A stretch of DNA of 64,000 nucleotides from Candidatus Anderseniibacteriota bacterium (GTDB lineage Bacteria; Patescibacteriota; Andersenbacteria; UBA10190). Each line of letters opens with the position of its first letter. The first letter of the stretch is position 1. The notes under the pieces are model-generated. The model saw only the letters and a program-made list of their open reading frames with translations. It ran no database searches and was not told the DNA's origin. The stretch is taken from contig JAIOOW010000002.1 of assembly GCA_021414205.1 (NCBI GenBank), forward strand, positions 340,171-404,170, read 5' to 3'. Below are positions 1,335-19,850 of the stretch, piece by piece. A program made the position numbers and the translations under genes.

Positions 1335-1337
1335 GAT

Positions 1338-1782: not shown

Positions 1783-1784
1783 TC

Positions 1785-2617: not shown

Positions 2618-2647
2618 TTCATTTAATTCATAACTACATTCCACTCT

Positions 2648-2794
2648 ATGACTATAGGAATCTCAACAATAAGCCCGCTCGCATCACTTATATTCGGAAT
2701 ATTGATTTTACTATTCCCTCAGTTCTTAAATTATTTCGTCGCAATCTATCTGATCATCATTGGATTAGTAGGACTGGGAATATTCGGTGTATAA
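2648..2794 (+). CDS. Small membrane protein (DUF3096-like, 48 aa)
   Basis: Own translation, below the ORF-track length cutoff: MTIGISTISPLASLIFGILILLFPQFLNYFVAIYLIIIGLVGLGIFGV*. Confidence 0.3.
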   Translation: MTIGISTISPLASLIFGILILLFPQFLNYFVAIYLIIIGLVGLGIFGV

Positions 2795-2807
2795 CCCTTG
2801 CTCACCC

Positions 2808-3062
2808 CTATTTGCTAAACAGGTTTGATATTTTTAACTTCGCAACTCCAAACAGGTAAACTATTTCAAGAACTCCGAGCGTGTTTACAACCATAAATAT
2901 CACAAACCACCACTGCTGGCCTTTTCGCGCAGAATGCCACAGAGCAAGGCCTTTCCAAAAAATACTCCAAAATACTGCTACTACAGCAAGGCTGCCAAAC
3001 AGTGCGGGCAACCCTGACCCTAACCCAAGAGAAGAAACGTCAATCATACGTGTAACATACAT
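2808..3062 (-). CDS. Small membrane protein
   Basis: 84 aa with 2 TM helices and the WKGLALWHSARKGQQWWFV motif, which I recall from small membrane proteins of CPR genomes. Confidence 0.4.
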   Translation of the reverse strand: MYVTRMIDVSSLGLGSGLPALFGSLAVVAVFWSIFWKGLALWHSARKGQQWWFVIFMVVNTLGVLEIVYLFGVAKLKISNLFSK

Positions 3063-3110
3063 CCCAATGACGATTTCGACTATGGGTATAGTGCGTGATA
3101 AGATACCACT

Positions 3111-3713
3111 ATGAGAAAGATAGTTGTCTTTATGATGATCAGCCTGGACGGAGTCATGCAGGCTCCGGGCGCGCCAGACGAGGATATCTCAGGAAACTTT
3201 CAGTATGGCGGCTGGACGGCACCATATTCCGATGAATCATTCGGCGACATACTCAAGCAAGAATTAAGCGTGTCGTTTGATTTGTTGCTCGGGAAAAAAA
3301 CGTATGAGATATTCGCTGCATATTGGCCTAAGCAAACAGGCTTCATAGCTGACCCATTCAATGCAGCAAAAAAATACGTTGTATCAGATGAACCAATGGA
3401 ACTCACCTGGGAAAAATCAATCCTTATTCATGATGATGTGATTGCAAATATACAAGCATTAAAACAAGAGGATGGTCCTACATTTCACGTGTGGGGAAGC
3501 AGCGTACTCAACCAAACCCTTTTACAGAACGACCTAGTTGACGAACTACGACTACGTATATACCCCGTTACAATCGGAAGCGGAAAGCGTTTCTTTGGAG
3601 AAGGAACAATCCCTGCCGCGTTTGAATTGATCAACTCCCAAGCGTTACCGAGTGGCGTCATCCTCGCCAACTATAAACGAGCTGGCGAACTTACAACGGG
3701 TTCAGTTATTTAA
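3111..3713 (+). CDS. Dihydrofolate reductase family protein (RibD C-terminal domain)
   Basis: The N-terminus MRKIVVFMMISLDGVMQAPG and overall length are typical of the RibD_C/DHFR-like family. Confidence 0.7.
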   Translation: MRKIVVFMMISLDGVMQAPGAPDEDISGNFQYGGWTAPYSDESFGDILKQELSVSFDLLLGKKTYEIFAAYWPKQTGFIADPFNAAKKYVVSDEPMELTWEKSILIHDDVIANIQALKQEDGPTFHVWGSSVLNQTLLQNDLVDELRLRIYPVTIGSGKRFFGEGTIPAAFELINSQALPSGVILANYKRAGELTTGSVI

Positions 3714-3719
3714 ATGCAA

Positions 3720-4172
3720 TTACGCGAAGAAGCTTGCAAGTAGCGCAATAAGGAGAATACTTACCAAATTCGAAAGACTATCTGAAAAGAATTTCTTCCA
3801 TGCGATTTTCGGATCGCAATTGCTCCACAAAATCCCCTGGCCAATAATTGGCACCATAAATGCCAGCCAATTAAATACTACGAAGCTAATCGCCATGGAT
3901 ACTGGCACGCGATTTTGAATGCTCAAGGAAACCACAAATACTACCGCAAACGAAGTTAAAAGCGATAATCCAATTTGCCCTGCATACATCTTCGGCATCA
4001 TAGGCTTTGCCTCGATCATTTTCTTTTTCTTTTCCTCTTCGGAAAGCTTGTCGAATCCAAGATACTGCATGTGGATTTTCCCCATTGGAGTTGCATTGGA
4101 ATACCACAACGTGCCAACTACGGCATACACTACTGCACCAACAAGCGAAAGAATAAGTAAAGTAATAATCAT
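3720..4172 (-). CDS. DUF1761-like membrane protein
   Basis: 150 aa with 4 TM helices and a lysine-rich loop (EEEKKKKMIEAKP). Confidence 0.4.
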   Translation of the reverse strand: MIITLLILSLVGAVVYAVVGTLWYSNATPMGKIHMQYLGFDKLSEEEKKKKMIEAKPMMPKMYAGQIGLSLLTSFAVVFVVSLSIQNRVPVSMAISFVVFNWLAFMVPIIGQGILWSNCDPKIAWKKFFSDSLSNLVSILLIALLASFFA

Positions 4173-4296
4173 AAATAACAGTTATATATAATATTTTTAC
4201 TATACACCGAATGCCCTTTGCGGCTATATAAAAACCCCACAAGCAGTGCGCGCCTATGGGGCAGAATAAATACCAATGCGTTTACGAAGCAAGGCC

Positions 4297-4671
4297 CTAT
4301 CCAAACAGGACGTGGGTGTAGTGCGGCGGAAAATCATGCGGCAAGTGAAGAGATTGTCGCAGCGGCTGATACAGACTATCCCATACCATCCTGCCACACA
4401 CACTATCGAACGTTTCATAGCCAGCGCACTCAGTCATAGGTTTTGTCTTGAAATAGAAACGGTCGTAAATGCGATCCATAATTTCTTTATTTGCGGCGAC
4501 AAACCGTTCCGCAGTCAGCCAGTCAAGCATTGCTCGATCGTGATGAGAAGACGAAACACATTCATAGAGAACTTGCGCAAGCTTTCTGATGCAAAATTCA
4601 CGCACTTCTTCATAGGATCGCATGCCACACTCCTTCGCTTTGAGAAAAGGGCTCCAGTAAATACCTCTCAT
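4297..4671 (-). CDS. Hypothetical protein
   Basis: The ORF has normal codon composition; the start may be the internal Met at 4622. No family recognised. Confidence 0.3.
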   Translation of the reverse strand: MRGIYWSPFLKAKECGMRSYEEVREFCIRKLAQVLYECVSSSHHDRAMLDWLTAERFVAANKEIMDRIYDRFYFKTKPMTECAGYETFDSVCGRMVWDSLYQPLRQSLHLPHDFPPHYTHVLFG

Positions 4672-4741
4672 ATTGTTCTATCCAAGAATGAAAATGTCAA
4701 CCAGTAGCTAAAGCTACGCACCACTTGACGCAAAAGGATAT

Positions 4742-5821
4742 ATGGGATATATTGCAACCCTGTACATTTCACCCCTCTATACGTTCGGAGAACAAAAGAT
4801 GGAACACCACGCAGAACATCCGGTTTTTGGCAAGTGCCAAGTTACCGGGGTCAAAGAGTACGTACAGCGTGCTTTGCCAGAATTTTGCCAGCGACTCGGT
4901 TTGAATTCCACAACCTCCAAGACACTTGAAAGCCTTGGATGCGCAAGCCTGCAAGCAGCTGCCGCAATGATCGAAACTTCCTGCATGTTAGGAGAAGTTG
5001 CGCCACTCAAAGAGTCTCGAGAATTCTGGCTAAAGCTTGGCCAAGTCCTCGTCGGACACGGCAGCATGCTTGTCGGAGAAGATTACCTGCAAGCAGCAAT
5101 GAACCACTTGCAAAGCGGTGGCAACGTCTTGCTTATCCAGAATCACCGTTCTGGAGCAGACACGCTACTAATGGAAGCGTTAGTGAATCAGTATTTTGGA
5201 TACGACGCTACGGCTGACTGGGCCTACATGTCCGGACACGCCGTCAACCTCTTCCTCTTGCCGCTCATGTTTACAGCAGCAGTTCGAAGATTCCAGATTT
5301 TTTCTGCAAAGTACCAATCGACCGGCCTGCCTGGCATGGCAGATGCAACAACCATGGGCATTCAAAACGTCAAAGCCCTTACAAGTCTTTCCCGATACTG
5401 CCGCCAAGGAGGCAAGCTAGTTGGGCTATATCCAGAAGGCGGTCGCGGAGAGACGTGCATGAAGCGAGGCGAAAGCAAAACGTCTTGCATTTTCAAGCTG
5501 ATGGCTCACAACAGCACGTCACTCCTCATCTTGCCAACATACGTTGATGGGTCGGCAAGCATTCTTCCCGTAGTGCGTGGAAGCAATGAATATAATGAGG
5601 TATTCATGCACGCTCGGGTTGGAACTGGTACGCTCTCGATCGGTAAACCCATACCTTGGGAAGCACTGGAACAGGCTGCGAAGGAGATGTCCGACAGGCT
5701 CAATCAGCCATGCGAGCAATCTATTTGCGATGCAGGGTTGGCGCTTGTAGCTCAACTTGCTCCCAATGCCGAACAACGGGGACCATACGAAACAATTCGT
5801 TTCTCACGGCCTCCAGCATAA
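4742..5821 (+). CDS. Lysophospholipid/glycerol-phosphate acyltransferase (PlsC-like) family protein
   Basis: HX4D motif (IQNHRSGADTL) and motif III (YPEGGRGE) of the LPLAT superfamily. Confidence 0.5.
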   Translation: MGYIATLYISPLYTFGEQKMEHHAEHPVFGKCQVTGVKEYVQRALPEFCQRLGLNSTTSKTLESLGCASLQAAAAMIETSCMLGEVAPLKESREFWLKLGQVLVGHGSMLVGEDYLQAAMNHLQSGGNVLLIQNHRSGADTLLMEALVNQYFGYDATADWAYMSGHAVNLFLLPLMFTAAVRRFQIFSAKYQSTGLPGMADATTMGIQNVKALTSLSRYCRQGGKLVGLYPEGGRGETCMKRGESKTSCIFKLMAHNSTSLLILPTYVDGSASILPVVRGSNEYNEVFMHARVGTGTLSIGKPIPWEALEQAAKEMSDRLNQPCEQSICDAGLALVAQLAPNAEQRGPYETIRFSRPPA

Positions 5822-5839
5822 CTACCTCAGGAGAAAAGC

Positions 5840-6457
5840 ATGAGAGTTATCGGTCTTACTGCTCCAGTGCAAACTGGAAAGATTCAGCTTACTCATGTGT
5901 TCAAAAACCATGGATATCGTTTTGTGGATCTGAACGATTTCATCTACGACGACCGGCGCGCTGGAAGCGCCAAGTACGATTACTACCAACGTCGCTGGCC
6001 AGGCTGCCTCGATGAGGAAGGAGTCGAAACGGGCAGGTTCTACCAAACGCTGGATCGCGCGACGTTTCAAGATCTTCTCAATGCCGACATGGCAATGGTA
6101 ACGCTCCACACGTTGGAAGAAATCGAGAAAGCGCGAAGAGAGGGAGTAGACGTAGTGCTCAGCTGGGAATATCTTGCGAGAATCTCCCAGCACTTGAGCA
6201 TTGATCAACTCCTCATCTTTCAATCAGATAACACTATCTGGCTTGATCGGCTCAAAAAGCGCGCAACTGAGCTCGGATGGAGCACCATTCCTACGGACGA
6301 TCAGCTTTGGGCCATCATCGACATGCTCGATGTGCGTCCCGAGACGATCAATCAAGAATGTATCCGCACCTTTTCTCCAAAACAGATATCGCGCATAGAC
6401 GTGAGCCCTGATGACTGGGGCGCATGCAATCTTGCAACCCTGCTCAGATCGCTCTAA
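5840..6457 (+). CDS. Dephospho-CoA-kinase-like protein with degenerate P-loop
   Basis: VIGLTAPVQTGKIQL parallels the CoaE N-terminus (IGLTGGIGSGKST), but the Walker A is degenerate. Confidence 0.3.
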   Translation: MRVIGLTAPVQTGKIQLTHVFKNHGYRFVDLNDFIYDDRRAGSAKYDYYQRRWPGCLDEEGVETGRFYQTLDRATFQDLLNADMAMVTLHTLEEIEKARREGVDVVLSWEYLARISQHLSIDQLLIFQSDNTIWLDRLKKRATELGWSTIPTDDQLWAIIDMLDVRPETINQECIRTFSPKQISRIDVSPDDWGACNLATLLRSL

Positions 6458-6586
6458 GCAACGTATCGCCGCCCTCCTGGTTTTTCCGGGAGGCGTTTTT
6501 ATTTATTCAAACAAGCGCGAGAGATACGTACTACTCGCAAAAAACTCCCGCTTCAAGCAATTGGCTTGTAACGCGACTATATCCCA

Positions 6587-6988
6587 TTACTTCCAAAGTA
6601 CTTTAGTGCGAAGCCAACCACCAAGAACCACGGCAGGGATAGCAGTAACAGCAATCATTATCGGATACCAATGTGCCGACAGGTTCCACCCACCAATCAC
6701 TCCGGCGATACCTCCAAGCTGCCCGATACCTGCAAGTACCCACACATGCTTCATCTTACTATTTGGCGCGATCAAAGCGGTGATATACCCGCCTAAAACC
6801 GTATAAATAATTCGATACACAAGCGCGAATACGAGCATTCCCGTAGTTAATGCTAGAGGGAAAATGCCAGTATATTCCACAAGCGTATCGGTACCAGTAG
6901 AAAGCACCACGACAACGATAAACCCCACTACGACGGCTCCAATACTTTTTAAGATATTCATACAAATAGCATACCCCACGCAATGCAT
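6587..6988 (-). CDS. Membrane protein (4 TM)
   Basis: Hydrophobic ORF; probable start at MNILKS (coordinate 6961). Confidence 0.4.
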   Translation of the reverse strand: MHCVGYAICMNILKSIGAVVVGFIVVVVLSTGTDTLVEYTGIFPLALTTGMLVFALVYRIIYTVLGGYITALIAPNSKMKHVWVLAGIGQLGGIAGVIGGWNLSAHWYPIMIAVTAIPAVVLGGWLRTKVLWK

Positions 6989-7009
6989 AGAGTTAAATAC
7001 TGAGTTCTT

Positions 7010-7465
7010 TTAATCCAAATTCCCCGACACTTCAAGAGCACTCAGAACAGATTCGCTCCATTTTTTTACATTATCCACGTATGCACCCAAACCACCCCTT
7101 ACGACGTCTGACGCAAGAATAGTCCAATCCGGCTTTACGGGATACGCACCTCGATCTTCTGCCGTACCCGTAATTTTCCAATCGCGAACATCCGATGCAA
7201 GGCTCTCTTTATGTAATTCATCATGCTCTCGAAAAGAGCTCGGATTACGAACAAACTCTTGAAGGGAAACTTTCGCGTTTTCTAATCCTTTTCGCGAATA
7301 CAAACTTGGGTGTTGCAGATTATAAGCAAGCACGGTGAGATGATGAATTTTGCCAACGCCATTAAAATCTTCAAAATCCCATGTAATCATCTCGTGTAAG
7401 TAGTCACGGCACTCCTTGCCATCGTCAAGAGGCGCCCCGCATTCAACACATTGCACTATATCCAT
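7010..7465 (-). CDS. Hypothetical protein with N-terminal CxxC zinc-ribbon-like motif
   Basis: MDIVQCVECGAPLDDGKEC at the N-terminus; the rest is soluble. Confidence 0.4.
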   Translation of the reverse strand: MDIVQCVECGAPLDDGKECRDYLHEMITWDFEDFNGVGKIHHLTVLAYNLQHPSLYSRKGLENAKVSLQEFVRNPSSFREHDELHKESLASDVRDWKITGTAEDRGAYPVKPDWTILASDVVRGGLGAYVDNVKKWSESVLSALEVSGNLD

Positions 7466-7489
7466 ACAGAATATGGTAGCACAGGGGAT

Positions 7490-7918
7490 TTACCGCAACT
7501 TCTTCTCCCAAGCCCCTAATTGCTCGCTCAATTCACCCAATTTCTTCTGCTCTGGTGAAGTAAAGTATTCCTCTGAAAGCTCCTCGAGCCGCTTCATGCT
7601 TTCATCGAGATACGTCTGACCCCCTTTTGCAAGCGCAACAAGACTCACTCGAGCATCTCCTTTGTTTGGCAAACGCTTCACCAAACCAATTTTCTCCATT
7701 GGAAGAAGCAGCCGCGTAATACCTGATGCTGTGAGACCCACCTTTCCAGCAAGATCTATTCGACGCATTTTCTGCTCCGTTGCTTCGCTCAAATGACGCA
7801 GAATTATAAACTCTTGGAAACTAATTCCCCCTAAACTAGAATCAAGTCGCCTGCGCAACACTGCCTCTACTCGCACGAGTTCCATAAAAAATTCTACTGC
7901 TCCGCTTATTGTCTTCAT
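7490..7918 (-). CDS. MarR family transcriptional regulator
   Basis: Winged-helix core LRHLSEATEQKMRRIDLAGKVGLTASGITRLLLPMEKIGLVKRLPNKGDARVSLVALAKGG. Confidence 0.7.
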   Translation of the reverse strand: MKTISGAVEFFMELVRVEAVLRRRLDSSLGGISFQEFIILRHLSEATEQKMRRIDLAGKVGLTASGITRLLLPMEKIGLVKRLPNKGDARVSLVALAKGGQTYLDESMKRLEELSEEYFTSPEQKKLGELSEQLGAWEKKLR

Positions 7919-7934
7919 AAGTACTTATAATATA

Positions 7935-7954
7935 TTAGTTGATTAATCAAGTAT
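7935..7954. promoter_or_regulatory. Near-palindromic candidate MarR operator in the divergent promoter region
   Basis: ttagttgattaatcaagtat is a near-perfect inverted repeat. It lies between marR (-) and the DHFR-like gene (+). Confidence 0.25.
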
Positions 7955-8016
7955 ATTGCAAATAATAAGTAGTGTCAAGAAGAACAACCAGCCCCTGTGA
8001 TACAATGTAAGTCATT

Positions 8017-8574
8017 ATGCGAACGCTCTACTTATTTATGATGATATCCCTAGATGGATACTTCGAAGGAAAAAACCATGACCTCTCTTGGCACAATGCG
8101 AATAATGAGGAATTTCAAAATTTTGTAGCCAAACAAAATGCCACTATCGACACCATTCTTATGGGAAAAACTACGTACGAAATGATGCGAGATTTTTGGC
8201 CTAGCGAAGATGCACAAACTACCGATCCCCTTACTGCAGAGTTTATGAGTACAACAAAAAAATATGTATTCTCTCATGAGCCGTACGAACCGAAATGGGA
8301 AAATGCAGAAACAATACATGAAGATATCAATGTTCGCGTACAAGCCCTAAAAGAAGAGCCCGGCAAAGATATCGCTATTTTTGGAAGCAATATACTCGCA
8401 GTCTCTTTAATGGAAGCGGGGCTCGTAGACGAATTTCGTATCATGATAAATCCAATCGCAATAGGCGCGGGTACTCCACTATTTCACGGAATCACCAAAC
8501 CACTACAGCTTAGCCTTACCGCAACAACTCAGTTTCAATCCGGAAATGTATTGACAATATACAAGAATACGTAA
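8017..8574 (+). CDS. Dihydrofolate reductase family protein (RibD C-terminal domain), second paralog
   Basis: MRTLYLFMMISLDGYFEGKNHDLSWH; paralogous to the gene at 3111-3713. Confidence 0.7.
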   Translation: MRTLYLFMMISLDGYFEGKNHDLSWHNANNEEFQNFVAKQNATIDTILMGKTTYEMMRDFWPSEDAQTTDPLTAEFMSTTKKYVFSHEPYEPKWENAETIHEDINVRVQALKEEPGKDIAIFGSNILAVSLMEAGLVDEFRIMINPIAIGAGTPLFHGITKPLQLSLTATTQFQSGNVLTIYKNT

Positions 8575-8591
8575 AGCCTCTTGATATCGCT

Positions 8592-8897
8592 TTAGATAAC
8601 CTTAGAAATCAGTAGCACTAATACAACTGCAGTAAAAATTGCGAAAATACCAATCGTACGAACAAAAAGATTTACTGCCTCTTTTTTCTTTCCTTCCATG
8701 AACAGTAGAAGCGGCTGATACAAAAAAAGGTATGACATTACAGCAGCAGAAAGAGTAAGTAGCGACAGGAATGCAACGGGTGCGCCAATCGTATCCGGCG
8801 TATCTTTAAGTTTTTGTGATAAGAAATTAATAACACCAACAACAAGAACGATGTACCCCGCGGCGCTTAGCGCATTAATAAGAGGTTTTTTGAACAT
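8592..8897 (-). CDS. Small membrane protein (3 TM)
   Basis: Hydrophobic 101-aa ORF. Confidence 0.4.
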   Translation of the reverse strand: MFKKPLINALSAAGYIVLVVGVINFLSQKLKDTPDTIGAPVAFLSLLTLSAAVMSYLFLYQPLLLFMEGKKKEAVNLFVRTIGIFAIFTAVVLVLLISKVI

Positions 8898-8904
8898 AGA
8901 GTAA

Positions 8905-9333
8905 TTATATGCCTAAAGAACATTCGATGATCCACTCAATACCATACTTATCTCTGAACATACCGGCATACGTACCCCACGGACTCTCCCCCATAGCCCC
9001 TTCTACATTTCCTCCGGCAGAAAGACCATTAAATAATCTATCCGCCTCTTCTTTGCTGTCAGTGCTTATTAAAATTTTACTCCTGTTCTCGTTTTCATTT
9101 ACTTTCCCCATCACCTCCGGGACATCGTTTGCAATCAATACGCTTCCCTCACTAATGGGCAATGCAATATACATAATTTTATTCTCTTCTTTTTCTGGCA
9201 CCGGAAATTCAGCGCTCGCCAGATCTTTGAACCGGATAATTTTTGTAAACTCACCGCCAAAGACTGATTTATAAAATGTAAACGCTTCTTCGGCATTGCC
9301 GTTAAAATTAATCCAAGGGTTTATTGTTGTCAT
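8905..9333 (-). CDS. VOC family protein (PhnB-like glyoxalase/bleomycin-resistance fold)
   Basis: NPWINFNGNAEEAFTFYKSVFGGE at the N-terminus is characteristic of PhnB-like VOC proteins. Confidence 0.65.
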   Translation of the reverse strand: MTTINPWINFNGNAEEAFTFYKSVFGGEFTKIIRFKDLASAEFPVPEKEENKIMYIALPISEGSVLIANDVPEVMGKVNENENRSKILISTDSKEEADRLFNGLSAGGNVEGAMGESPWGTYAGMFRDKYGIEWIIECSLGI

Positions 9334-9399
9334 ACGCCCATACTATCAAATGAACTTCATTTAATAAAGCGTTCCGGATCACTAATTTGATACAATTAA

Positions 9400-9609
9400 T
9401 TAAATCTCAGGAGCAGCTTCCCATTTAGGCTTCATCTCTGCACCCCATTTTTGCGAATCCGCTGCATGCATCTTCTCCATGTCTTTTGCAACATCAGGGT
9501 GGTTTTCCATTACATGAGTCGTCATTTTGCCAACCATTTCATCCCACGACTGAGCTGTTAACTCCTTGTCACAAGTTCCTCCCAACTCTTTACAAATCAT
9601 TTTTTTCAT
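9400..9609 (-). CDS. DUF1059 family small protein
   Basis: MKKMICKELGGTCDKELTAQSWDEMVGKMTTHVMENHPDVA matches the DUF1059 pattern (MxxxxCxDxGxxCD). Start taken at the internal Met. Confidence 0.5.
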   Translation of the reverse strand: MKKMICKELGGTCDKELTAQSWDEMVGKMTTHVMENHPDVAKDMEKMHAADSQKWGAEMKPKWEAAPEI

Positions 9610-9738
9610 ACCAAGTAGTATTAGTGATAATACTTGCACTGTACAAACACAGGAACAAAGACGAAAGGCTTTTCAATAAACCTCAGAAACGTTTCACACC
9701 GCGAAGTGGAGGGGGCAAGAACCTGTTTTTGCTTATGC

Positions 9739-10944
9739 ATGAATATATATTATAGTTCCCTTGTGATTTCTCTCACCAAATCCACTTTTTATAATGACGT
9801 AGATACGGCTCAGAAGTTATCTTCGTTCGTACTCTCGGCTAAGCAGCTAAGTTTTGGAGAGCAGTGTAATAAGTTCGAAGAACAGTTTGCACAATATCAG
9901 GGTCGAAAGCATTGTGTTTTAATGAACAGTGGTAGTTCTGCAAATCTTGCCCTCATTCAAGCGTTACGCAATATAGGAAAAATCAAGTTGAACGATACGA
10001 TTGGATTTTCTGCTGTGACCTGGTCCACAAATGTCATGCCCATAATTCAGCTTGGACTTGCAGCTGTACCGATCGATATTGAGCTTGATACATTGAATAT
10101 TTCACCCCAGACGATTCGCAAGGTATTGGAAACTACCTCTCTGAAGGCTATTTTTTTAACGCATTTGCTGGGATTTTGTGACGACCTCCAAGGTATTCGA
10201 GAACTGTGTGCCCAAGAAAAAATATTACTTATTGAGGATACTTGTGAGGCTTTGGGGTCAGTCTATCATGGGAACAAGTTGGGGAATTTTGGAATTGCTA
10301 GCACATTCTCTTTTTATGTGGGTCATCATTTGTCAACAATTGAAGGAGGGGCCGTATGTACTGATGATGATGAATTAGCGACTATGCTTCGTATAGTTCG
10401 AGCCCATGGCTGGGATCGTAATCTGCCTTCTGCTGAACAGAGTGCTATCCGTCAGCAACACAGTCTTAACTCTATCTTTGAATCAAGGTATACATTTTAT
10501 GATTTGGGATTCAATCTTCGTCCAACGGAAATAACGGGGTATCTCGGTACGATTCAGTTGCCCTATATTCACGAAATTATTCAAAAGCGTAATCAGAATT
10601 TTATTCGCTTGGCACCAGCAATCTATGAACAAACAGATAAGTATTATCCGTTGCACTATGACCACATTGACTTGGTATCAAATTTTGCAATTCCAATAGT
10701 TTGCAGAACTCGTAAACAGCGCGACTTATTGGTGTCTGCATGCAACGAGCGAATTGAAATTAGGCCTATTGTTGGTGGAAATATTGCTTCTCAACCGTTT
10801 TTCTGCAAATATGTGCCGGAATTTTCTCAATCATTCAAAAACTCGAATGCTTCTATCATACATGATCAAGGTTTATATTTCGGCAATAACCCGCTTTTGA
10901 CTGAAATAGAGCTTCAGGAATTACATCAAGTTTTTGCAGGATAA
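9739..10944 (+). CDS. DegT/DnrJ/EryC1/StrS-fold sugar 3-dehydratase (E1/DdhC-RfbH or ColD type), PLP-Lys replaced by His
   Basis: Fold-type I aminotransferase motifs are present, but the Schiff-base Lys position reads SFYVGHHLSTIEGG (compare RfbH SFYPAHHITMGEGG). Start chosen at MNIYYSS. Confidence 0.65.
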   Translation: MNIYYSSLVISLTKSTFYNDVDTAQKLSSFVLSAKQLSFGEQCNKFEEQFAQYQGRKHCVLMNSGSSANLALIQALRNIGKIKLNDTIGFSAVTWSTNVMPIIQLGLAAVPIDIELDTLNISPQTIRKVLETTSLKAIFLTHLLGFCDDLQGIRELCAQEKILLIEDTCEALGSVYHGNKLGNFGIASTFSFYVGHHLSTIEGGAVCTDDDELATMLRIVRAHGWDRNLPSAEQSAIRQQHSLNSIFESRYTFYDLGFNLRPTEITGYLGTIQLPYIHEIIQKRNQNFIRLAPAIYEQTDKYYPLHYDHIDLVSNFAIPIVCRTRKQRDLLVSACNERIEIRPIVGGNIASQPFFCKYVPEFSQSFKNSNASIIHDQGLYFGNNPLLTEIELQELHQVFAG

Positions 10945-10961
10945 AAAAATCTTTTTAAAAA

Positions 10962-12089
10962 TTATGCATGATATTCTAAAAACTGAAACGCAGCTCTATA
11001 GATGTCTTTGAACAAGTTTGCTTTGCGTAATCGCTCTACTCCTTCCATATACTCTGTATAATTTTTTTGCACATCTTTCAGCCCCTTTACGAATCCCAGC
11101 TGTGTATATGGGACTACAACTCCTGCCTTATTTGCGGTTATTTCTGTGTGCATAAGCGAGACTCTTGTCATGATGACCGGAATCCCAAGCTGTATATATA
11201 ACTTAATTTTACCGGGATCTGTAAATTCTGTGTAATCCAACGGCTTGCTTTCATATAGCGCAACGGAAACTTCCCATTTTTTTGTTATACTGTGGAGTTC
11301 TTTATCTGGTACAAAACCAAAAAACGATACTCTATTCGATAAACGGTGCAATGCTGTATATTCTTCAAGCGATGAACGAAGAGATCCATTACCAATGATA
11401 TCTAAATAGATATTTTCATTCTCTTGTAGAATCTTAAGTAACAGAAAAAGTCCTTTGCCCTCCGTAAGAGTTCCTATGTATCCGATCCTGTTTTTTTGCG
11501 GATACCGACGTGGTCGCACATCTCGTATGCCGAATGGAACTATTTTTCTTATCAAGGACTGTTTTTTTGTGCTTGTTGGATGTAGCTGCTTGAGAGTAGG
11601 AGATAAGTAGAGAACGATGCCGAGTCGTCGATTATAAAAATTTACTAATGCATGATATATAAACATAAAACCAGTTTCATTGGGGAAATAGTCGAATATC
11701 CAGAATATATATTGATTATTTAAAAAGAAAGCTATCCAAGAATAGAATAATAGGAATAATGGATAAGAGACGATAATTGAAGTATCTCGTATGTTATAAG
11801 TGGATAGAAAAACGAGATAATAGTAATAGTAGTAGAAATGAATAATTATTTTATTGTTGCCTTTATATCCCCACACCTCTTTCTCATCTACAAGAATGCC
11901 ATTTGTATAATGCTTAAAGATTGTCGGTCTATTTTCGTATCCAGGCGGCATCAGATATAGATAAAAGTGACTAGAGTGTTGAGAGAAGTACTCCACAACA
12001 TTTCCAGTGTCCTGGCATTGATAATGCGCTATATATGCAATTCGTTTATATAGAGACATTCTGTGTATATTCTTTACGCTTGAGGTCAT
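10962..12089 (-). CDS. Glycosyltransferase family 4 (GT-B), with atypical hydrophobic N-terminal half
   Basis: C-terminal glycos_transf_1-like segment (IGYIGTLTEGKG...DIIGNGSLRSSLEEY...GFVPDKEL); N-terminal region is Tyr/Phe-rich. Confidence 0.5.
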   Translation of the reverse strand: MTSSVKNIHRMSLYKRIAYIAHYQCQDTGNVVEYFSQHSSHFYLYLMPPGYENRPTIFKHYTNGILVDEKEVWGYKGNNKIIIHFYYYYYYLVFLSTYNIRDTSIIVSYPLFLLFYSWIAFFLNNQYIFWIFDYFPNETGFMFIYHALVNFYNRRLGIVLYLSPTLKQLHPTSTKKQSLIRKIVPFGIRDVRPRRYPQKNRIGYIGTLTEGKGLFLLLKILQENENIYLDIIGNGSLRSSLEEYTALHRLSNRVSFFGFVPDKELHSITKKWEVSVALYESKPLDYTEFTDPGKIKLYIQLGIPVIMTRVSLMHTEITANKAGVVVPYTQLGFVKGLKDVQKNYTEYMEGVERLRKANLFKDIYRAAFQFLEYHA

Positions 12090-12301
12090 AGTGTGAGCGT
12101 GTGCTCGAACATAGGTTACGAGATAAGGGTAATGGAAAAGGTATTAATAAGACAATGATTTCGATATCAAATCGAGTCCGATGTCCGACAGGTATCCTCT
12201 ATCTACAAGAACCGATAGCAGTAGAGGAAGCAAGAACCTGGTTTACATAAAAAGAACCCCCTTATTTAATCTCGCTAGGGGTCGTTGCGAGCTGCTTGAA
12301 A

Positions 12302-12703
12302 CTACTGACTTTCCCTTACTTCGTAGCAGAGAAACTTAACTGATAAGAACTCCTCACCCGAACAGGCAGAAGAGGCAAATCGATGATGTTGGGTTGCGTT
12401 CGGAAGAACATTCTTATTTTCATCCAAAAGCCCGACGAGTTCGATGCGTATTGCACAAACAGCACATAAGGCTGCAGCCAATAGCTTAAAAATAGATCCC
12501 TCTTGAAACATTGCAGTGTCCTGATCTTCGAATATTACCAACACCTCGGCAGTAGGATGGTCATCGTTCCTGATCAAGACCCGGCTTCCTTTCGGAATAT
12601 AAATCCGATCTCCTGGCTGCAGCCTTTTGAAAAAAGCGACAACCTCCTGAAATTTTTCTTCTTCTCTCCTTAACACTTCCGCTGGACCGAACTCTTCCAT
12701 CAT
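12302..12703 (-). CDS. Hypothetical protein
   Basis: 133-aa ORF; no family recognised. Confidence 0.3.
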   Translation of the reverse strand: MMEEFGPAEVLRREEEKFQEVVAFFKRLQPGDRIYIPKGSRVLIRNDDHPTAEVLVIFEDQDTAMFQEGSIFKLLAAALCAVCAIRIELVGLLDENKNVLPNATQHHRFASSACSGEEFLSVKFLCYEVRESQ

Positions 12704-12981
12704 CTTCTCCTAAAACAAGTTGGCAAACAACAAAACAACCGCCCATGGGCGGTATTACACATGTAGGTATCTACCCCGCAAGGGGCTGGAGGTTGCACCG
12801 TGCCCATTAAGTGGGCTGGTTGCAGGAGTATTTATAGCGGGCCAGTTCCCTCATACTCTCTCTTGATACATATTCGGTTGTTATTAAGCAGAATACTCTA
12901 TCGATTGGAATGGTCAACTATGTATTGAACAACGTTTATAACCTTGGATTGGGTGAATATTGAGAAAAAACTAGAGTCTCT

Positions 12982-13224
12982 CTATGAACCCTTCTTCCCT
13001 CCCGGCCAGCAAATCGGGCACGGGCCAGCTCCCTTATAAACGTGGTTACGACTACATACTTTTTTACCCTGCTCTTTAAGCGCAGCAAGAATCGTTGGGG
13101 GCAAATCCTTTCGACAACCGCAATGCTTTAAGTGCGCTTCATGCCATTTCACTCGCTGTTCAAGCGTAGACGGCATAGCAAGCTTGTGCTTTTCATGCCA
13201 GGCTTTGTTGATTTTGTTTTTCAT
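12982..13224 (-). CDS. Small basic Cys/His-rich hypothetical protein (questionable)
   Basis: 80-aa ORF; its 3' end overlaps the GC-rich repeat region, so it may be spurious. Confidence 0.2.
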   Translation of the reverse strand: MKNKINKAWHEKHKLAMPSTLEQRVKWHEAHLKHCGCRKDLPPTILAALKEQGKKVCSRNHVYKGAGPCPICWPGGKKGS

Positions 13225-13582
13225 TTTTATTGAGCTTATAAATACCTACAGCAATCGGTAATGCGAACGTTAGAACATAATAAAGATAAACATCAAACTT
13301 GTAATATCCATCAGCAGGCTTAAGAGCTTTTACGAGAAATACATAATCAAAAACTATCGCAATTAAAGTCCAAAAAATTGCTACTAACAAATAATACCGA
13401 AAAGAATTAGACTGAACTTTTTTCAGCAACACCCAGAGCGTAATAATAATTCCAATAGGCATAATAACCCAACCAATCATGGAGGCTGGCACGAATACAA
13501 ACAGAAGAAACCCAAGAACGTATCCAATAAGCCAAAGGAGAAATCCCCAGCCTAAAGAATCTTTTAAAAATTGTTTATTCAT
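13193..13582 (-). CDS. Membrane protein (4 TM)
   Basis: Hydrophobic 129-aa ORF. Confidence 0.4.
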   Translation of the reverse strand: MNKQFLKDSLGWGFLLWLIGYVLGFLLFVFVPASMIGWVIMPIGIIITLWVLLKKVQSNSFRYYLLVAIFWTLIAIVFDYVFLVKALKPADGYYKFDVYLYYVLTFALPIAVGIYKLNKNEKQNQQSLA

Positions 13583-13678
13583 ATATTCATCCTACACCCA
13601 TTCAATAAACGCAGAAACGTTTGGTTCCGAGTGACAGAGGAAACAAGAACTCATCAGCTGCGAATTAATAGTTAGCCT

Positions 13679-14704
13679 TTATTTTATAAAAATTTTACCT
13701 TTCGTCCGTGTTACCTGATTAAAAAAGTATGTAATGACCGTATAGTCTGCCGATTTATTTAATCGAATCGGATCCGTTGCATAAATAAAATCCCCCTTAG
13801 CATTATCCTTATGCTTACCATCGTCATACATTAAATATTTTTTACCGTTAACCACTGCAACCATCTTAATAGCATCTGATCTCTGAATTTGAGCCTTGAT
13901 TCGAAATGCTTGATTAGGAGAAATATGCTGCAGCTTTCCTATAATCTCTGCAGGAGAAAAAGCCAGCGCATCATCATTATCAGATTGCGACGAGCCTCCG
14001 TTACCAGCACTAGGAGAACTAGGAGCTATCCAATGAGCAACATTTTGAGCAAACTGCCTATTATCATCCCTTCCAATATATGTATCCTCCCATGCATTAC
14101 TATCGAGCATCACAAGAACATTCTGATTGGTTCCCCAGAGAGTAGCGACGGCATCAAAAAACAGACTAGTACCTCCCGTTGCCGTCCAACCTGCGATTGG
14201 TTGAATAGTTGCTATCGATTGTGTGAGCTGATGGCTATAGGTTGTGCTAATTGACCCACTAGAAGATACTCCCATGTTGCCACCAACAATACTCAAAATG
14301 GAGTTATCCCATGTGGTCCAATTATCATTTTCACCCACCAACACCACTCGCTTGCCCGTGTTAATAAATGAAGTAATTTTACTAATTTCATTAGCGGATA
14401 ACGAGCTACCAGGCTGACTACTAAAATTACCCAGATCAACCCAAATCGCATCGTAATCAGTAAGCGTTGCTGATTCAAAATTACTAACAGTCGTAATATT
14501 AGCACTACCACCAAAAGCGGAATTCAATATATCGGTCATAATAGGCCAACTCGACCTGCCATATCCTAATCCCTCCCCCACATACGCACCCTGACGCACT
14601 AATAACGTAGAAGCATGTGCAGACGAAGGTAACACTAGAACAAGAAAACTAAATGCCACTAGCAACAGGAACAATTGATGCCCACTATATTTCATACACT
14701 GCAT
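13679..14704 (-). CDS. Secreted protein with GldG/DUF4350-like (class I glutamine-amidotransferase-like fold) domain
   Basis: Signal peptide, then YDAIWVDLGNFSS...GKRVVLVGENDNW pattern. Confidence 0.4.
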   Translation of the reverse strand: MQCMKYSGHQLFLLLVAFSFLVLVLPSSAHASTLLVRQGAYVGEGLGYGRSSWPIMTDILNSAFGGSANITTVSNFESATLTDYDAIWVDLGNFSSQPGSSLSANEISKITSFINTGKRVVLVGENDNWTTWDNSILSIVGGNMGVSSSGSISTTYSHQLTQSIATIQPIAGWTATGGTSLFFDAVATLWGTNQNVLVMLDSNAWEDTYIGRDDNRQFAQNVAHWIAPSSPSAGNGGSSQSDNDDALAFSPAEIIGKLQHISPNQAFRIKAQIQRSDAIKMVAVVNGKKYLMYDDGKHKDNAKGDFIYATDPIRLNKSADYTVITYFFNQVTRTKGKIFIK

Positions 14705-14870
14705 TATATCACAAAAGTTAATTCGGAAATTCTTCTACCAGGGATCAGTAGTTCACAATAATTCGATCAAGCACCAGAAACGCTTTATTCACTACGAAAT
14801 ATATAAAGAAAAAACCGCCCCCATACATGGTTGCGGCTATACGAAACTTCAACTCTGCTCCACAAGGATT

Positions 14871-15494
14871 TCACGCTAGATCAAGGTTGCCCCTTGCTCG
14901 CGTCACATCAAGTGCGACTTCACGATCCGCCCAGCGAGCGATTACGCCAGTAGTAATCACTCCCCCAAAAACGGCGAGAATGACGAGCAGAATTACGAGC
15001 AAGCCCATCTGCGCCCCTTTGTTGTCATCATCGTCATCATCGCTTGTTGAAGAAAAAGCACTCATCACTTCCTTCAGAAATCCCGGAGCGTGACTCGCGG
15101 CTTCCCACGTGTTTGAAACTTGGGCATAGGTATTCCATGCAGCAACAGCAACGTCGCTCAAATTTCGGCGCCGGTATGCGACGACGATACTATGGGCCCA
15201 GATAGCCAACCCACTTCCGAGAACTGGACCAATAATCACCAAGTACCCAAGCTTGAACATTACCTCGCCCCAATGAGGCGTAAGCCATTCACACGAAACG
15301 GCGATCATCGTAAGAATGGTGAGATAGACCCAGGTGAATCCGCAGGCGGACATTACAAGCCCGCACCACACCATGAACCGAGAAAATCCGCCGATGATCT
15401 TCGTCTCCGTCAGATACGCCCCGGAGCTGTAGGCATTCCAGAAACTGATTCCGAAATTGAGACCCAAAAACAGAAACAGCATGAGATAATTCAT
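14871..15494 (-). CDS. Membrane protein with internal poly-Asp tract
   Basis: Several TM helices and a DDDDDD run (SSTSDDDDDDNKG). Confidence 0.4.
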   Translation of the reverse strand: MNYLMLFLFLGLNFGISFWNAYSSGAYLTETKIIGGFSRFMVWCGLVMSACGFTWVYLTILTMIAVSCEWLTPHWGEVMFKLGYLVIIGPVLGSGLAIWAHSIVVAYRRRNLSDVAVAAWNTYAQVSNTWEAASHAPGFLKEVMSAFSSTSDDDDDDNKGAQMGLLVILLVILAVFGGVITTGVIARWADREVALDVTRARGNLDLA

Positions 15495-15592
15495 TCTTTC
15501 TTCTCCCCTAGATTGGAAGGTGCTCTACTAACTTCGCCAATCGAAGCACCTGCATTATTTTATATAAATATAAAAATGTCAAGTTATCCGCA

Positions 15593-16117
15593 TCAACGGA
15601 AATAAGAACCTATGTATTTATTCCCAGTAGCTACAAGAATCCGCTCAACGATCTGTTCTAAGCTAAGGTTTTCTGCAATACTTTCTTCTTGCACAAAATT
15701 AAGAAGGTCATTTTCTTTGTACCATCTCCTCAATTCTTTCTCGCCAAATTCATCTTTATTTGGTTTATATTGATGACGACGAATCGTTTCTTCTAGCGAG
15801 ATATTGAAGTAAAAGAAATAGTTATTGTTAGGATGTTCTGCAATAATCTCTTTGAGCATTTCACCATATCGATCGCTATCAAAAATACCTTCCATGATTA
15901 CGTTATAGGAATTATCTAACAGAAAAAGCGTAGTCTTCTTTATGAGTTCAATATTGAGGCCATTGGGAATATCTTTTTCCTTCAAAACTATCCGCCTTAG
16001 ATAATCTTGTTCAACAATTGCTGTTTTTTGTTTTTGAGCATCGCGAACAGCGCGAGCCGCAGAGCTTTTTCCAGAGCCAGAAGGCCCTCTCAAGACAATG
16101 AGCTTCGTTTCTTCCAT
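15593..16117 (-). CDS. P-loop kinase (AAA_33/zeta-toxin-like fold)
   Basis: Walker A LRGPSGSGKSS immediately after the chosen start MEETKLIV. Confidence 0.5.
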   Translation of the reverse strand: MEETKLIVLRGPSGSGKSSAARAVRDAQKQKTAIVEQDYLRRIVLKEKDIPNGLNIELIKKTTLFLLDNSYNVIMEGIFDSDRYGEMLKEIIAEHPNNNYFFYFNISLEETIRRHQYKPNKDEFGEKELRRWYKENDLLNFVQEESIAENLSLEQIVERILVATGNKYIGSYFR

Positions 16118-16200
16118 ATAAATACGATAACATCCATACAAGCAAACACCAGGAACGCTAGAAACGTTTTGCTTACACCTTGCGCTTATGAATTACAAAA

Positions 16201-16968
16201 TCACTTCAACCTAAATTGATCTATAAGGTTATTGGCGTCATCAAATAATTGTGCATTTTTTAAACTAAAACGCTTTTTCCACTCTCTATTATTTTTAGTA
16301 AAAGAAAAAGTCAACCCGAGCTCACCAGGATGAGAGGTAACTTGGACATTTGCGATATCAGATTTTTCTATATCAGACACAACCCTTTCTATGCATCTAA
16401 TTATTGCTTCTCGCCAAAAAGCGTAAGAGAAAATTTCCGCTCCTTCGTCGTTATACAATATTTCCTCTTCCCTAATATTACCAGGGCCCAATTGAGGAAG
16501 ATACGTAGTAAGAGTTTCTCCTCTTAGATCTGATCTAAGAAATATTTGCGCCGTTTTTTCTACATTGCGTTTTCCTAATTTTAAATAAAATACGATATCA
16601 TATAGCTGACCATCACTTGCCCAAGCCTTGGCATAGTTTTTTGCATATTGATAAATATTTTTTAACTCTTTTTGGGTCGGAACACTGTTAATGAGTTTTT
16701 TTTCTCTATTGATGATTTGATTTTCCTGCTTCGTTTCCACGCTCGCTTGAGCACTTATCCTTAATAGCTCCGTTTTAATTTCCGGTACAATTTTTTTAAA
16801 CTGAAAGATAAGCGCTATTAAGGGAAAGCATCCTAGAATAATTCGTATCAATATTGGTAACCCAGAAAACCAGGCCCATAGAGAATATAAAATTCCGAGC
16901 CAAAATCCAATAGTTGGCCCATTTTGATAGACAAATGAAAACATAAACTTTGATCTTTTCATCGCCAT
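16201..16968 (-). CDS. Membrane-anchored hypothetical protein
   Basis: N-terminal TM helices, then a soluble 180-aa domain. Confidence 0.4.
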   Translation of the reverse strand: MAMKRSKFMFSFVYQNGPTIGFWLGILYSLWAWFSGLPILIRIILGCFPLIALIFQFKKIVPEIKTELLRISAQASVETKQENQIINREKKLINSVPTQKELKNIYQYAKNYAKAWASDGQLYDIVFYLKLGKRNVEKTAQIFLRSDLRGETLTTYLPQLGPGNIREEEILYNDEGAEIFSYAFWREAIIRCIERVVSDIEKSDIANVQVTSHPGELGLTFSFTKNNREWKKRFSLKNAQLFDDANNLIDQFRLK

Positions 16969-17107
16969 TGCTCCGAGAACAGGAAGAGTACCGAACCAGA
17001 ATAATGGCTATGAAGAAGCCAATTTGGACAAAAGAAAAAGCGAAGTAATCATTTACCCCACAGTCTTACTCACTATATTTTTTCACTAATAGATATGGAG
17101 AAATAAA

Positions 17108-17410
17108 CTATTCTTCCCACTTCCATCCTCGCAGTTCGTAGTATTTTTTACGTGGCGTTGCCTTAAATGGGTCAATACCATTTTTTCGGCAAATCGTTAT
17201 ATGGACTGTTGTGCCAAGCACTCCAATAAATAACGGGAAAACAAGGGCAAAGTGACCTACAAGGTAAAAGAGACCAATAGTTACAGAGTCAAGCGTGAGC
17301 CACTTCAACACTTTTCTTACTACGGACGTTTCAATCTCAAAACGCGCAAAAAACTGACTTGCTAAGAGCTGTAGTACAAGTAAAAACCCCAATTCTAGTT
17401 CAATGCCCAT
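17108..17410 (-). CDS. Small membrane protein
   Basis: Start trimmed to the internal Met to avoid overlap with the ATPase gene. Confidence 0.3.
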   Translation of the reverse strand: MGIELELGFLLVLQLLASQFFARFEIETSVVRKVLKWLTLDSVTIGLFYLVGHFALVFPLFIGVLGTTVHITICRKNGIDPFKATPRKKYYELRGWKWEE

Positions 17411-17430
17411 AGAGCCAAGTATATTACTGC

Positions 17431-19293
17431 CTACCCAAACAACCGCAGGCCATTCAAAATAACTACAAGCGCCAGACCCGAATCTGAAGCAATCGCCCAC
17501 TCCAAGTGAGTGTAACCAAATAGAGCTAACACAACGAAGATAGCTTTCACAGTCAGGGCTAGAGTTACATTCTGCTTAACAGTCGTAAGCGTTCTTCTGC
17601 CTAACCGAATAGCATACGGCACTTCGGAAAGATTATCATGCATCAAAGCTACGTCAGCCGTTTCAATAGCCGTATCTGAACCGCTCGCACCCATAGCAAT
17701 GCCCACATCCGCCGCTACTAATGAGGGTGCATCATTAACTCCATCGCCTACCATAGCCACTGCGCCAAATTCTTGTTTAAGCGCCTTAATTTTATCCACC
17801 TTTTGTTCTGGTAACAAAGCAGCAAAGAATCTTTTAATGCCTACTTGCTCCGCCACGCCAGCGGCTACATGAGCATTATCGCCTGTCAGCATGACGGGTT
17901 GAAGACCTAACTCTTGCAGAGTAGCCACGGTTGGCTGGGCCTCTTCTCGTAATTGGTCGGCAATACCTATAGCACCCATAACTTTGTTACCCTGACTCAC
18001 CAAGACCACAGTCTTGCCTTCTTTCTCTAAATGTTCAGCTTTTGCTAATACCTCATCAGTTGTCACCCCATTGGCGTGAATAAACTTTAAGTTACCAACA
18101 CAATGTTCCAAGTTATCACAAACCAGACAGACAGCCTTATTACCCTTGCCAGCCACGTTCTGGTAGTCCTTCATCACATGAGGCTTAATGCCTAGCTTTT
18201 GAGCGTGTGCAACAATACTTTTTGAAAGTGGATGAGAGGATAACTGTTCAATACCACAAGCATCGGCCAAAACATCTTCTTTACTAAAGCCATTGAAGGT
18301 AATGATGTCAGCAATGTAAGGTTCACCTTTGGTAAGCGTGCGGGTTTTATCAAACGCCACCGCTTTGACCTTACCCAACAATTCCAAGTATTTGCCACCC
18401 TTAATGAGCACACCGCGTTTAGAAGCACCCCCCAATGCCGAGGCAATGGAAACTGGTGTGGAGATGACTAAGGCGCAGGGACACGCAATAACAAGTAGTG
18501 TGAGGGCACGGTACAACCAAGGAACAAAGGGAGTGTGAAAGACTAGTGGTGGAATCAGACTAAGGGCAATGGCAAGTAGGACAACCAAGGGTGTGTAATA
18601 GCGCGCGAAGCTATCAATGAAAGCTTGGGCTGGGGCACGGGATTTTTGGGCTTGTTCCACCAGGTTAATAATCTTAGTGAAGGTAGATTCTGACGATGAC
18701 TTAGTTACCTTAATTTCCAGATAACCATTTTGGTTAAGCGTACCCGCAAACACAGTACCACCTTCCCGTTTGTCTTTCGGCAGAGGCTCACCTGTAATAG
18801 TGGCTTCATCCACTAAAGAAGAGCCACTAACAACAATGCCATCGAGAGGAATAAGGTCTCCAGCTTTAGCAATAACAATACTACCCACCTTTACTTGTTC
18901 AACGGGCAGTGTTTTACCCTCTTTGAGCGTGGCTGTTTGTGGAGATTTCTTTACCAATGTTTCTAAGGCACGTCGGGCGCGGTCCACGCCATAGACTTCA
19001 AACAGTTCAGCCAAGGAGAAAAAGAATACGACCGCAGCCGCTTCCGCCAGTTGGTCAATGAATAGAGCGCCGAGCGCGGCAATAGCCACCAAAAAATTGA
19101 TGTTGAGAAAATGCTTCTTGAAAAGGCCACGAACGGCATCTTGAAACACAAAATATCCGCCACCAAAGATAGCAAGGAGATAGAATGTCATGCTGATATA
19201 TGGCGGCTGATGTAGCCAACGGGCAGTAAAAGCTACAGCTATACTAATAGCAGAAAGAAGAGTGAGAAGTTTTTTTAGATTTTTTGAAGTCAT
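17431..19293 (-). CDS. Heavy-metal-translocating P1B-type ATPase lacking N-terminal metal-binding domain; variant DKTRT phosphorylation motif
   Basis: CPC motif in TM6 ([11 protein letters not shown]), GDGVNDAP hinge, and phosphorylation loop FDKTRTLT (canonical DKTGT). No HMA domain at the N-terminus. Confidence 0.8.
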   Translation of the reverse strand: MTSKNLKKLLTLLSAISIAVAFTARWLHQPPYISMTFYLLAIFGGGYFVFQDAVRGLFKKHFLNINFLVAIAALGALFIDQLAEAAAVVFFFSLAELFEVYGVDRARRALETLVKKSPQTATLKEGKTLPVEQVKVGSIVIAKAGDLIPLDGIVVSGSSLVDEATITGEPLPKDKREGGTVFAGTLNQNGYLEIKVTKSSSESTFTKIINLVEQAQKSRAPAQAFIDSFARYYTPLVVLLAIALSLIPPLVFHTPFVPWLYRALTLLVIACPCALVISTPVSIASALGGASKRGVLIKGGKYLELLGKVKAVAFDKTRTLTKGEPYIADIITFNGFSKEDVLADACGIEQLSSHPLSKSIVAHAQKLGIKPHVMKDYQNVAGKGNKAVCLVCDNLEHCVGNLKFIHANGVTTDEVLAKAEHLEKEGKTVVLVSQGNKVMGAIGIADQLREEAQPTVATLQELGLQPVMLTGDNAHVAAGVAEQVGIKRFFAALLPEQKVDKIKALKQEFGAVAMVGDGVNDAPSLVAADVGIAMGASGSDTAIETADVALMHDNLSEVPYAIRLGRRTLTTVKQNVTLALTVKAIFVVLALFGYTHLEWAIASDSGLALVVILNGLRLFG

Positions 19294-19837: not shown

Positions 19838-19850
19838 AAATGTAAGTATA

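Follow-up and report, generated by a model that had tools for sequence, protein, structure and literature searches.

Enzymes of the ColD type, with the histidine that takes the place of the cofactor-binding lysine and the mechanism associated with it, have been known for about two decades. ColD (WbdK) from Escherichia coli O55:H7 and Yersinia (PDB 2GMS, 2GMU, 3B8X, 2R0T and 3GR9) is the guanosine diphosphate (GDP)-4-keto-6-deoxy-D-mannose 3-dehydratase. We have analysed a stretch of 64,000 nucleotides (hereafter the window) from a Candidatus Anderseniibacteriota bacterium, in which a gene for a protein of this family lies beside a glycosyltransferase (GT) gene (Table 1). The kind of enzyme, its signature and its mechanism are those already described; the window protein is a distant new addition to the family, with a disrupted gene context.

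The second reference enzyme, E1 (RfbH, DdhC or AscC; PDB 3BCX and 3BB8), is the cytidine diphosphate (CDP)-6-deoxy-L-threo-D-glycero-4-hexulose 3-dehydrase. It shares with the window protein the fold, the His-His pair at the lysine position and, for the window protein by homology, the first half-reaction, in which a pyridoxamine 5'-phosphate (PMP) ketimine is formed and the 3-hydroxyl is then lost. Unlike the window protein, E1 depends on the E3 reductase and carries a [2Fe-2S] cluster, whose ligands form a C-X57-C-X-C-X7-C motif. According to a review (PMC8987622), ColD is cluster-free, hydrolysing the enamine intermediate and regenerating PMP from glutamate, while E1 and SpnQ use a [2Fe-2S] cluster and a reductase. 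SpnQ, the TDP-4-keto-2,6-dideoxyglucose 3-dehydratase of the spinosyn forosamine pathway, is a DegT-fold protein with His for Lys, as in the window (PMC8987622), and differs by its cluster, its general ferredoxin/flavodoxin reductases and its dTDP sugar; the window protein has no cluster motif. The C3-dehydratases of the Campylobacter jejuni HS:5 and HS:11 capsules (GDP-3,6-dideoxy-heptose pathway), likened here by their description, are ColD-type, cluster-free and dependent on pyridoxal 5'-phosphate (PLP)/PMP and glutamate, like the window type. They act on a heptose, GDP-6-deoxy-4-keto-heptose (PMC10440746), and their product is passed on to a distinct cupin epimerase and a C4-reductase.

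The window protein resembles ColD in its fold, in the His at the lysine column followed by a second His, in the cofactor Asp and two Arg residues and in having no Fe-S block. Members of its family also adjoin gmd and a reductase gene resembling GDP-fucose synthase (ColC-like). It departs from ColD in its motif, VGHH instead of YSHH (Gly for Ser187), in a locus from which gmd and colC are missing, and in its host. The latter belongs to the Patescibacteria (candidate phyla radiation), so that the target glycan would not be an O-antigen; these bacteria are not known to have lipopolysaccharide.

Judged from its sequence, the product of the gene is a PMP-dependent nucleoside diphosphate (NDP)-4-keto-6-deoxyhexose 3-dehydratase of the ColD type. 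Its best relative of solved structure was ColD (2gms, E 1.6e-57, vs 1.8e-42 for E1), and the top 10 PDB matches retrieved by Foldseek with its AlphaFold model (predicted local distance difference test, pLDDT, 76.9; predicted template modelling score, pTM, 0.80) were all ColD, with TM values of 0.72-0.75 to the ColD chains. The public record MCE9643058.1 names it only "DegT/DnrJ/EryC1/StrS aminotransferase family protein." An alternative GTG start at 9763 would give 393 residues and agreed better with the N-termini of the homologues (shared MI(K/S)LTKSTF). The ATG at 9739 adds eight residues absent from all homologues, and the public gene model may begin 24 nt too early. The same DNA was present on an 80-kb Logan contig (run SRR15633504).

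The first-pass annotation of the window, made from its letters, had proposed that the PLP-binding lysine is replaced by histidine, and the alignments bore this out. His196, in the motif SFYVGHHLSTIEGG, sat at the Schiff-base lysine column and aligned with His188 of ColD; when HMMER aligned the two proteins, VGHHLST of the window stood opposite YSHHIAT of E. coli ColD. The deposited ColD mutants YSNH (H188N), YSKH (H188K) and YNKH (S187N/H188K) pinned the first His as the catalytic position, and His196 is accordingly the predicted catalytic acid/base. The S187N/H188K double mutant was reportedly made to turn ColD into an aminotransferase. We have also aligned 110 DegT-fold proteins, taken from 80 related loci and the window. 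The His196 column held H in 88 and K in 22, the latter being ordinary aminotransferase paralogues with motifs such as FSFYPGKNL, and no conserved lysine was found one or two residues away. The lysine of the S-F-x-x-x-K aminotransferase motif occurred neither in the 14 residues of SFYVGHHLSTIEGG nor nearby, and FSFYVGHH was invariant in an alignment of 18 family sequences.

The same annotation had left the choice between E1 and ColD open, suggesting the Fe-S cysteines as the criterion. Only the ColD half stood, since the E1 cysteine block was absent. In the alignment to 3bcx, Cys251, Cys253 and Cys261 of E1 were opposite Arg, a gap and Ala, the segment RDCYCAPGCDNTC that carries these three cysteines of the [2Fe-2S] motif being matched by DRN-LPSAEQSA, which has no cysteine. 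The fourth cluster cysteine, Cys193, has an equivalent in the window protein (Cys169), and ColD has the same one. The curated RfbH model NF011936 gave 217.1 bits, below its cut-off of 423. As a positive control, nine true E1 paralogues (P.HH) in the related loci kept the block RDWGRDC[WY]C...DNTC, several of them next to glucose-1-phosphate cytidylyltransferase and CDP-glucose 4,6-dehydratase genes; they form a group separate from the window protein. The block was missing from all 78 V[AG]HH proteins, the window's included, and an E1-type enzyme with an Fe-S cluster was thus rejected. Asp167, Arg227 and Arg342 of the window protein were invariant in the family, and so was the SGS(S/T)AN loop (S64-N69), which aligned with ColD. 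The three residues correspond to ColD Asp159, Arg219 and Arg331, of which the first binds the cofactor nitrogen and the two others the GDP phosphates.

Besides these residues, Cys43, Cys157, Cys169, Cys207 and Cys322 were jointly conserved in 60 of the 78 ColD-type members. E. coli ColD has only the Cys169 equivalent, and the Lys-type aminotransferases have Ala, Val or Thr there. Such a set, as a whole absent from E. coli ColD, could hint at a redox or metal feature. An alternative metal site was set aside as improbable, the losses being single and to hydrophobic residues, and the five cysteines are probably buried instead.

The assignment to the ColD type also determines which partners are to be expected, namely gmd and colC-like genes and therefore not ddhA/B/D. 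We have called and clustered the open reading frames (ORFs) of the 80 genome loci and recorded the neighbours of the 78 ColD-type proteins. A short-chain dehydrogenase/reductase (SDR) of the GDP-L-fucose-synthase type (Fcl/ColC; up to 422 bits to the Fcl model) was directly adjacent to the dehydratase in 35/78 and present anywhere in the locus in 47/78. A GDP-mannose 4,6-dehydratase (Gmd; 559 bits, above the NCBIfam cut-off) was found in 21/78 loci and an adjacent GT11 fucosyltransferase-like gene in 12/78. The family layout, gmd, colD, colC and transferase, is that of colitose-type clusters. Within the DNA examined, 16/78 loci were free of SDR genes, several of them on long contigs. It is a large family, 7419 of the scored candidates reaching E <= 1e-20, and members at 60-65% identity are spread over Levybacteria, Roizmanbacteria, Gottesmanbacteria and other Patescibacteria. 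A literature search linking Patescibacteria with colitose returned nothing relevant. Loci L002, L003, L007 and L014 (Levyibacteriota, Gottesmanbacteria and other Patescibacteria) are large polysaccharide clusters, and in each of them colD is directly preceded by a GT gene of the window GT family. In the first three, a second paralogue follows a few kb downstream and adjoins a glucose-1-phosphate cytidylyltransferase gene, and L002 and L007 also have a CDP-glucose-4,6-dehydratase-like SDR (212 bits, below the curated cut-off).

The closest relatives gave a more precise view of what the window locus may have been. In L082, whose ColD is 76% identical to that of the window, colD, an Fcl-like SDR (325 aa) and a GT (382 aa) are encoded by overlapping genes on one strand, and L083 (ColD 71% identical) has the same gene order. 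L086 and L087 carry colD, the Fcl-like SDR and then an orthologue of the window GT (P0245, 45% identical). The Fcl-like gene, of 325-327 aa, directly follows colD in L082, L083 and L086. L089 (ColD 71% identical) has colD followed directly by a GT, with a different, dTDP-glucose-dehydratase-like SDR gene converging on it. Since the closest relatives carry an operon of colD, a colC-like gene and a GT, the window pair represents a rearranged and truncated cassette, which fits the earlier suggestion of a truncated or distributed pathway. A glyoxalase-family gene common to L082 and the window lies on opposite sides of the cassette, and the neighbourhood is therefore orthologous but rearranged.

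In the window, colD and the GT gene lie tail to tail, the GT being inverted with respect to the relatives. Their stop codons, at 10944 and 10962, are 17 bp apart, so that the genes converge, and the divergent orientation first described for the GT had to be corrected. The short spacer occupies the site of the colC-like gene. No terminator-like hairpin was found in it, and a promoter/terminator scan of 9.3-12.4 kb was uninformative. We have also considered a decayed colC-like gene. When 30 Fcl-like proteins were compared by permissive tblastn with 9-14.8 kb and with the window as a whole, no match fell below E 0.27. In the 18-sequence alignment the window ColD stops a few residues short of the C-termini of its relatives. 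The pair lies in the lowest-GC stretch of the window (10-12 kb, 0.375).

The pairing with a GT4-like enzyme was supported by the Pfam matches (Table 1). The likely start of the GT is at 12059 (365 aa), favoured by the lengths of its orthologues (362-366 aa) and by the Logan gene call; the public record MCE9643059.1, called at 329 aa, is probably about 36 residues short. The N-terminal half had been described as unusual for its aromatic residues. It is indeed rich in them (F+Y+W 22.5%, compared with 13.5-19.6% in family members and 11.1 +/- 3.4% in ORFs of the related loci), but this proved to be conserved in the family and no anomaly, and the GT-B fold is a normal one. Four orthologues (45-47% identical) covered 95-97% of the protein, aromatic stretch included, and YYYYYYLVFLS was paralleled in them by FYYLYYLYFLIK, FYFIYYFYILFK and similar stretches. 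The AlphaFold model (pLDDT 87.1) showed strand-helix alternation in both halves, with the aromatic stretch as a helix in a Rossmann-like domain, and a membrane or degenerate region was rejected on these grounds. The best PDB matches were the retaining GT-B enzymes GtfA, TarM, MshA and SdgB.

The GT is closely preceded, on its own strand, by an ORF of 133 aa. A search of 1.8 billion representative proteins gave only two relatives of it. One is a 132-aa orthologue with 77% identity; the other has 6211 aa, and 37 repeated stretches of that protein matched residues 31-74 of the ORF. A cupin sugar epimerase or ketoisomerase was considered for it and dropped, with only a sub-threshold Cupin_1 match, a weak bicupin match and no sign of involvement.

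We have then investigated whether the two genes are intact. More than 150 columns are invariant in the 18-sequence family alignment, and the dehydratase deviated at none of them. The locus of P0002 retains colC, and Tajima relative-rate tests of the window copy with this protein gave unique changes (window vs P0002) of 32 vs 31, 27 vs 32 and 32 vs 33 with three outgroups; with more distant outgroups the window copy had fewer unique changes. As far as such comparisons can tell, there is no sign of relaxed constraint on the dehydratase. The GT is likewise intact and conserved with its four orthologues over its whole length. A working enzyme is favoured because the family-invariant residues are all kept and the rate is not accelerated.

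On balance, we lean towards a functional ColD-type dehydratase and an associated GT that are the two-gene remnant of a three-gene cassette and rely on partners encoded elsewhere, a 4,6-dehydratase and a reductase. If the enzyme works as E. coli ColD does, its substrate would be an NDP-4-keto-6-deoxyhexose, with GDP-4-keto-6-deoxy-D-mannose the most likely one. PMP would form a ketimine at the C4 keto group, His196 would take the C4' proton, and the 3-hydroxyl would be expelled. Hydrolysis would yield the NDP-4-keto-3,6-dideoxyhexose and ammonia, and PMP would be regenerated by glutamate, an iron-sulfur cluster and an E3-type reductase being presumably unnecessary. The GT, of a family that travels with the dehydratase, probably transfers the finished 3,6-dideoxyhexose to a cell-surface glycan; such a donor is suggested by co-location, orthologue P0245 following colD and a colC-like gene. 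The colC-like epimerase/reductase would have been lost from the locus and the GT flipped relative to colD. For the pathway to operate, the 4,6-dehydratase and the 4-keto reductase would have to be elsewhere in the genome, as a distributed pathway. The other proposal of the first-pass annotation, a different use of the dehydratase chemistry, found no supporting evidence.

Several observations weigh against the remnant of a working cassette. We have searched for partners by tblastn with members of the neighbour families, comprising all SDR types (Gmd, Fcl, CDP- and dTDP-type dehydratases and GalE) and cytidylyltransferases. No SDR or nucleotidyltransferase homologue was found in the 64 kb of the window or in the 10 kb past each end (~84 kb). 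Moreover, none of the best 120 database matches (down to 63% identity) of the L082 colC-like protein, many of which share contigs with ColD homologues, fell on the contigs of this genome (470,730 bp; Logan, 80,317 bp), a result that rests on those 120 matches and on a metagenome-assembled genome that is possibly incomplete. The orthologous reductase thus appears to be absent from the assembled genome, because an orthologue from this genome should score above 70% identity and so rank near the top, and any substitute would be non-orthologous. In addition, the window GT shares only 32% identity with that of the closest relative's cassette, its link to the dehydratase product is indirect, and the dehydratase itself is 34% identical to the characterised E. 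coli ColD.

The same searches agreed with the first reading that ddhA/B/D-like genes are not nearby, queries for ddhA/ddhB (cytidylyltransferase and CDP-glucose 4,6-dehydratase) and for an E3 reductase having no tblastn match in the window. Apart from colD and the GT, the neighbour-family queries matched only a glycogen-synthase-type GT4 (41.6-43.1 kb) and, weakly, an ABC-transporter ATPase (53.3-53.9 kb) within the 64 kb. The 10-kb flanks contained efflux, repair and chaperone genes and an isomerase of the phosphoglucose isomerase/phosphomannose isomerase (PGI/PMI) type, with no sugar-nucleotide enzymes. The isomerase gene, ~9 kb past the right end, is the sole nearby gene that might feed a mannose-based pathway.

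The most serious of the alternatives, which we nevertheless regard as unlikely, is that the pair is a recently orphaned relic: the colC-like gene was deleted, the pathway is broken, no dideoxy sugar is made and the genes are intact only since the loss is recent. It would be compatible with the disappearance, without a remnant, of a gene that directly follows colD in the closest relatives, and with the apparent lack of a colC-like orthologue on the contigs of this genome. The low GC of the stretch, the small ORFs without known function, the metal-resistance and efflux genes and a serine recombinase ~24 kb away also suggest a variable accessory region. However, neither gene is shortened and every family-invariant residue is retained in both, and the dehydratase shows no excess of unique substitutions over its sister that retains colC. 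SDR-free loci also recur in the family, so that separation from the reductase seems to be tolerated. Dead genes would be expected to disappear quickly from genomes as small and streamlined as those of this group, which likewise counts against a relic.

A second alternative, which we hold to be improbable, keeps the chemistry and changes the substrate or the pathway. The VGHH branch of Patescibacteria would act on a non-GDP sugar (a CDP- or dTDP-4-keto-6-deoxyhexose, or a heptose), with variable reductases other than ColC, and lead to a different deoxy sugar. In this branch, an Fcl-like SDR is adjacent in only 5/26 cases and Gmd is in the locus in 6, and cytidylyltransferase or CDP-glucose dehydratase genes occur in four loci; the already mentioned gene combinations of L002, L003 and L007, the dTDP-type SDR of L089 and the heptose-acting enzymes of C. 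jejuni (PMC10440746) point the same way. Yet the three closest informative relatives pair the dehydratase with an Fcl-like SDR, the colitose-type arrangement, and the equivalents of Arg219 and Arg331, which bind the GDP phosphates in ColD, are conserved. Separate E1-type paralogues account for the CDP-pathway genes of some loci. We would give similarly little credence to the proposal that the VGHH branch, often without gmd or colC-like genes and beside its own GT-B family, is a free-standing 3-deoxygenation module served by variable non-orthologous reductases and possibly acting on a non-GDP sugar; it would make an undescribed dideoxy sugar in the envelope of ultrasmall bacteria without lipopolysaccharide.

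Hardly credible, finally, is an ordinary sugar aminotransferase with a shifted catalytic lysine, in spite of the NCBI family name and of a fold common to the aminotransferases PseC, ArnB and perosamine synthase, and it was ruled out by the alignments, as SFYVGHHLSTIEGG has no lysine, that of the 22 aminotransferase paralogues aligns exactly with His196, and the H188K and S187N/H188K entries of ColD mark the same column.

The wider surroundings of the remnant pair are listed in Table 1. The left part of the window and the adjoining 10 kb upstream (L084) hold many small domainless ORFs, two RibD_C genes, a MarR gene, a glyoxalase gene and an RND efflux pair, as well as two P-type metal ATPase genes with HMA/DsbD_2 and a cupredoxin-like gene; such surroundings suggest accessory content. 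A further segment, with + strand genes and a strongly positive AT skew, encodes a TPR protein, a Toprim/primase-like protein and a large serine recombinase. It could represent a mobile element that has integrated, or a junction that varies. The Logan contig ends at ~36167, just past the recombinase.

Table 1. Features of the window and its flanks (positions in the window unless another locus is given)
Feature	Coordinates	Strand	Remarks
colD-type gene, 401 aa	9739..10944	+	Pfam DegT_DnrJ_EryC1 (PF01041), E 2.1e-64
Active-site motif SFYVGHHLSTIEGG	10309..10350	+	Translation; His196 codon 10324-10326
Spacer, 17 bp	10945..10961	.	A/T-rich, between converging stops; site of colC-like gene in relatives
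GT-B, GT4-like (Glycos_transf_1), 375-aa ORF	10962..12089	-	PF00534, E 9e-14; PF13692, E 2.4e-10
ORF, 133 aa	12302..12703	-	
Region of small domainless ORFs	1..27000		Includes the ATPase genes below
P-type metal ATPase	17431..19293		
P-type metal ATPase	20873..23188		
Segment of + strand genes	27501..36150	+	
Toprim/primase-like protein	30634..32790		
Large serine recombinase	34423..36150	+	~24 kb from the pair
Glycogen/starch-synthase-type GT and phosphorylase-like gene	41624..44784	-	Glyco_transf_5 + GT1
Bifunctional PGI/PMI-type isomerase	L085 620..1606		

The analysis corrects the generic public name of "aminotransferase," as the protein is a 3-dehydratase, and leaves the known chemistry unchanged. 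Two points are of modest note, namely how abundant the family is in Patescibacteria, and the orphaned arrangement, in which only the separation from the usual reductase is unusual; the finding would gain greater weight only if the separated enzyme used a different substrate or partner. The window thus offers an example of a compact colD, colC and GT cassette broken up in a small genome. More generally, the making of 3,6-dideoxyhexoses by the ColD route occurs widely among Patescibacteria and in other uncultured lineages, where these rare sugars would decorate targets other than lipopolysaccharide.

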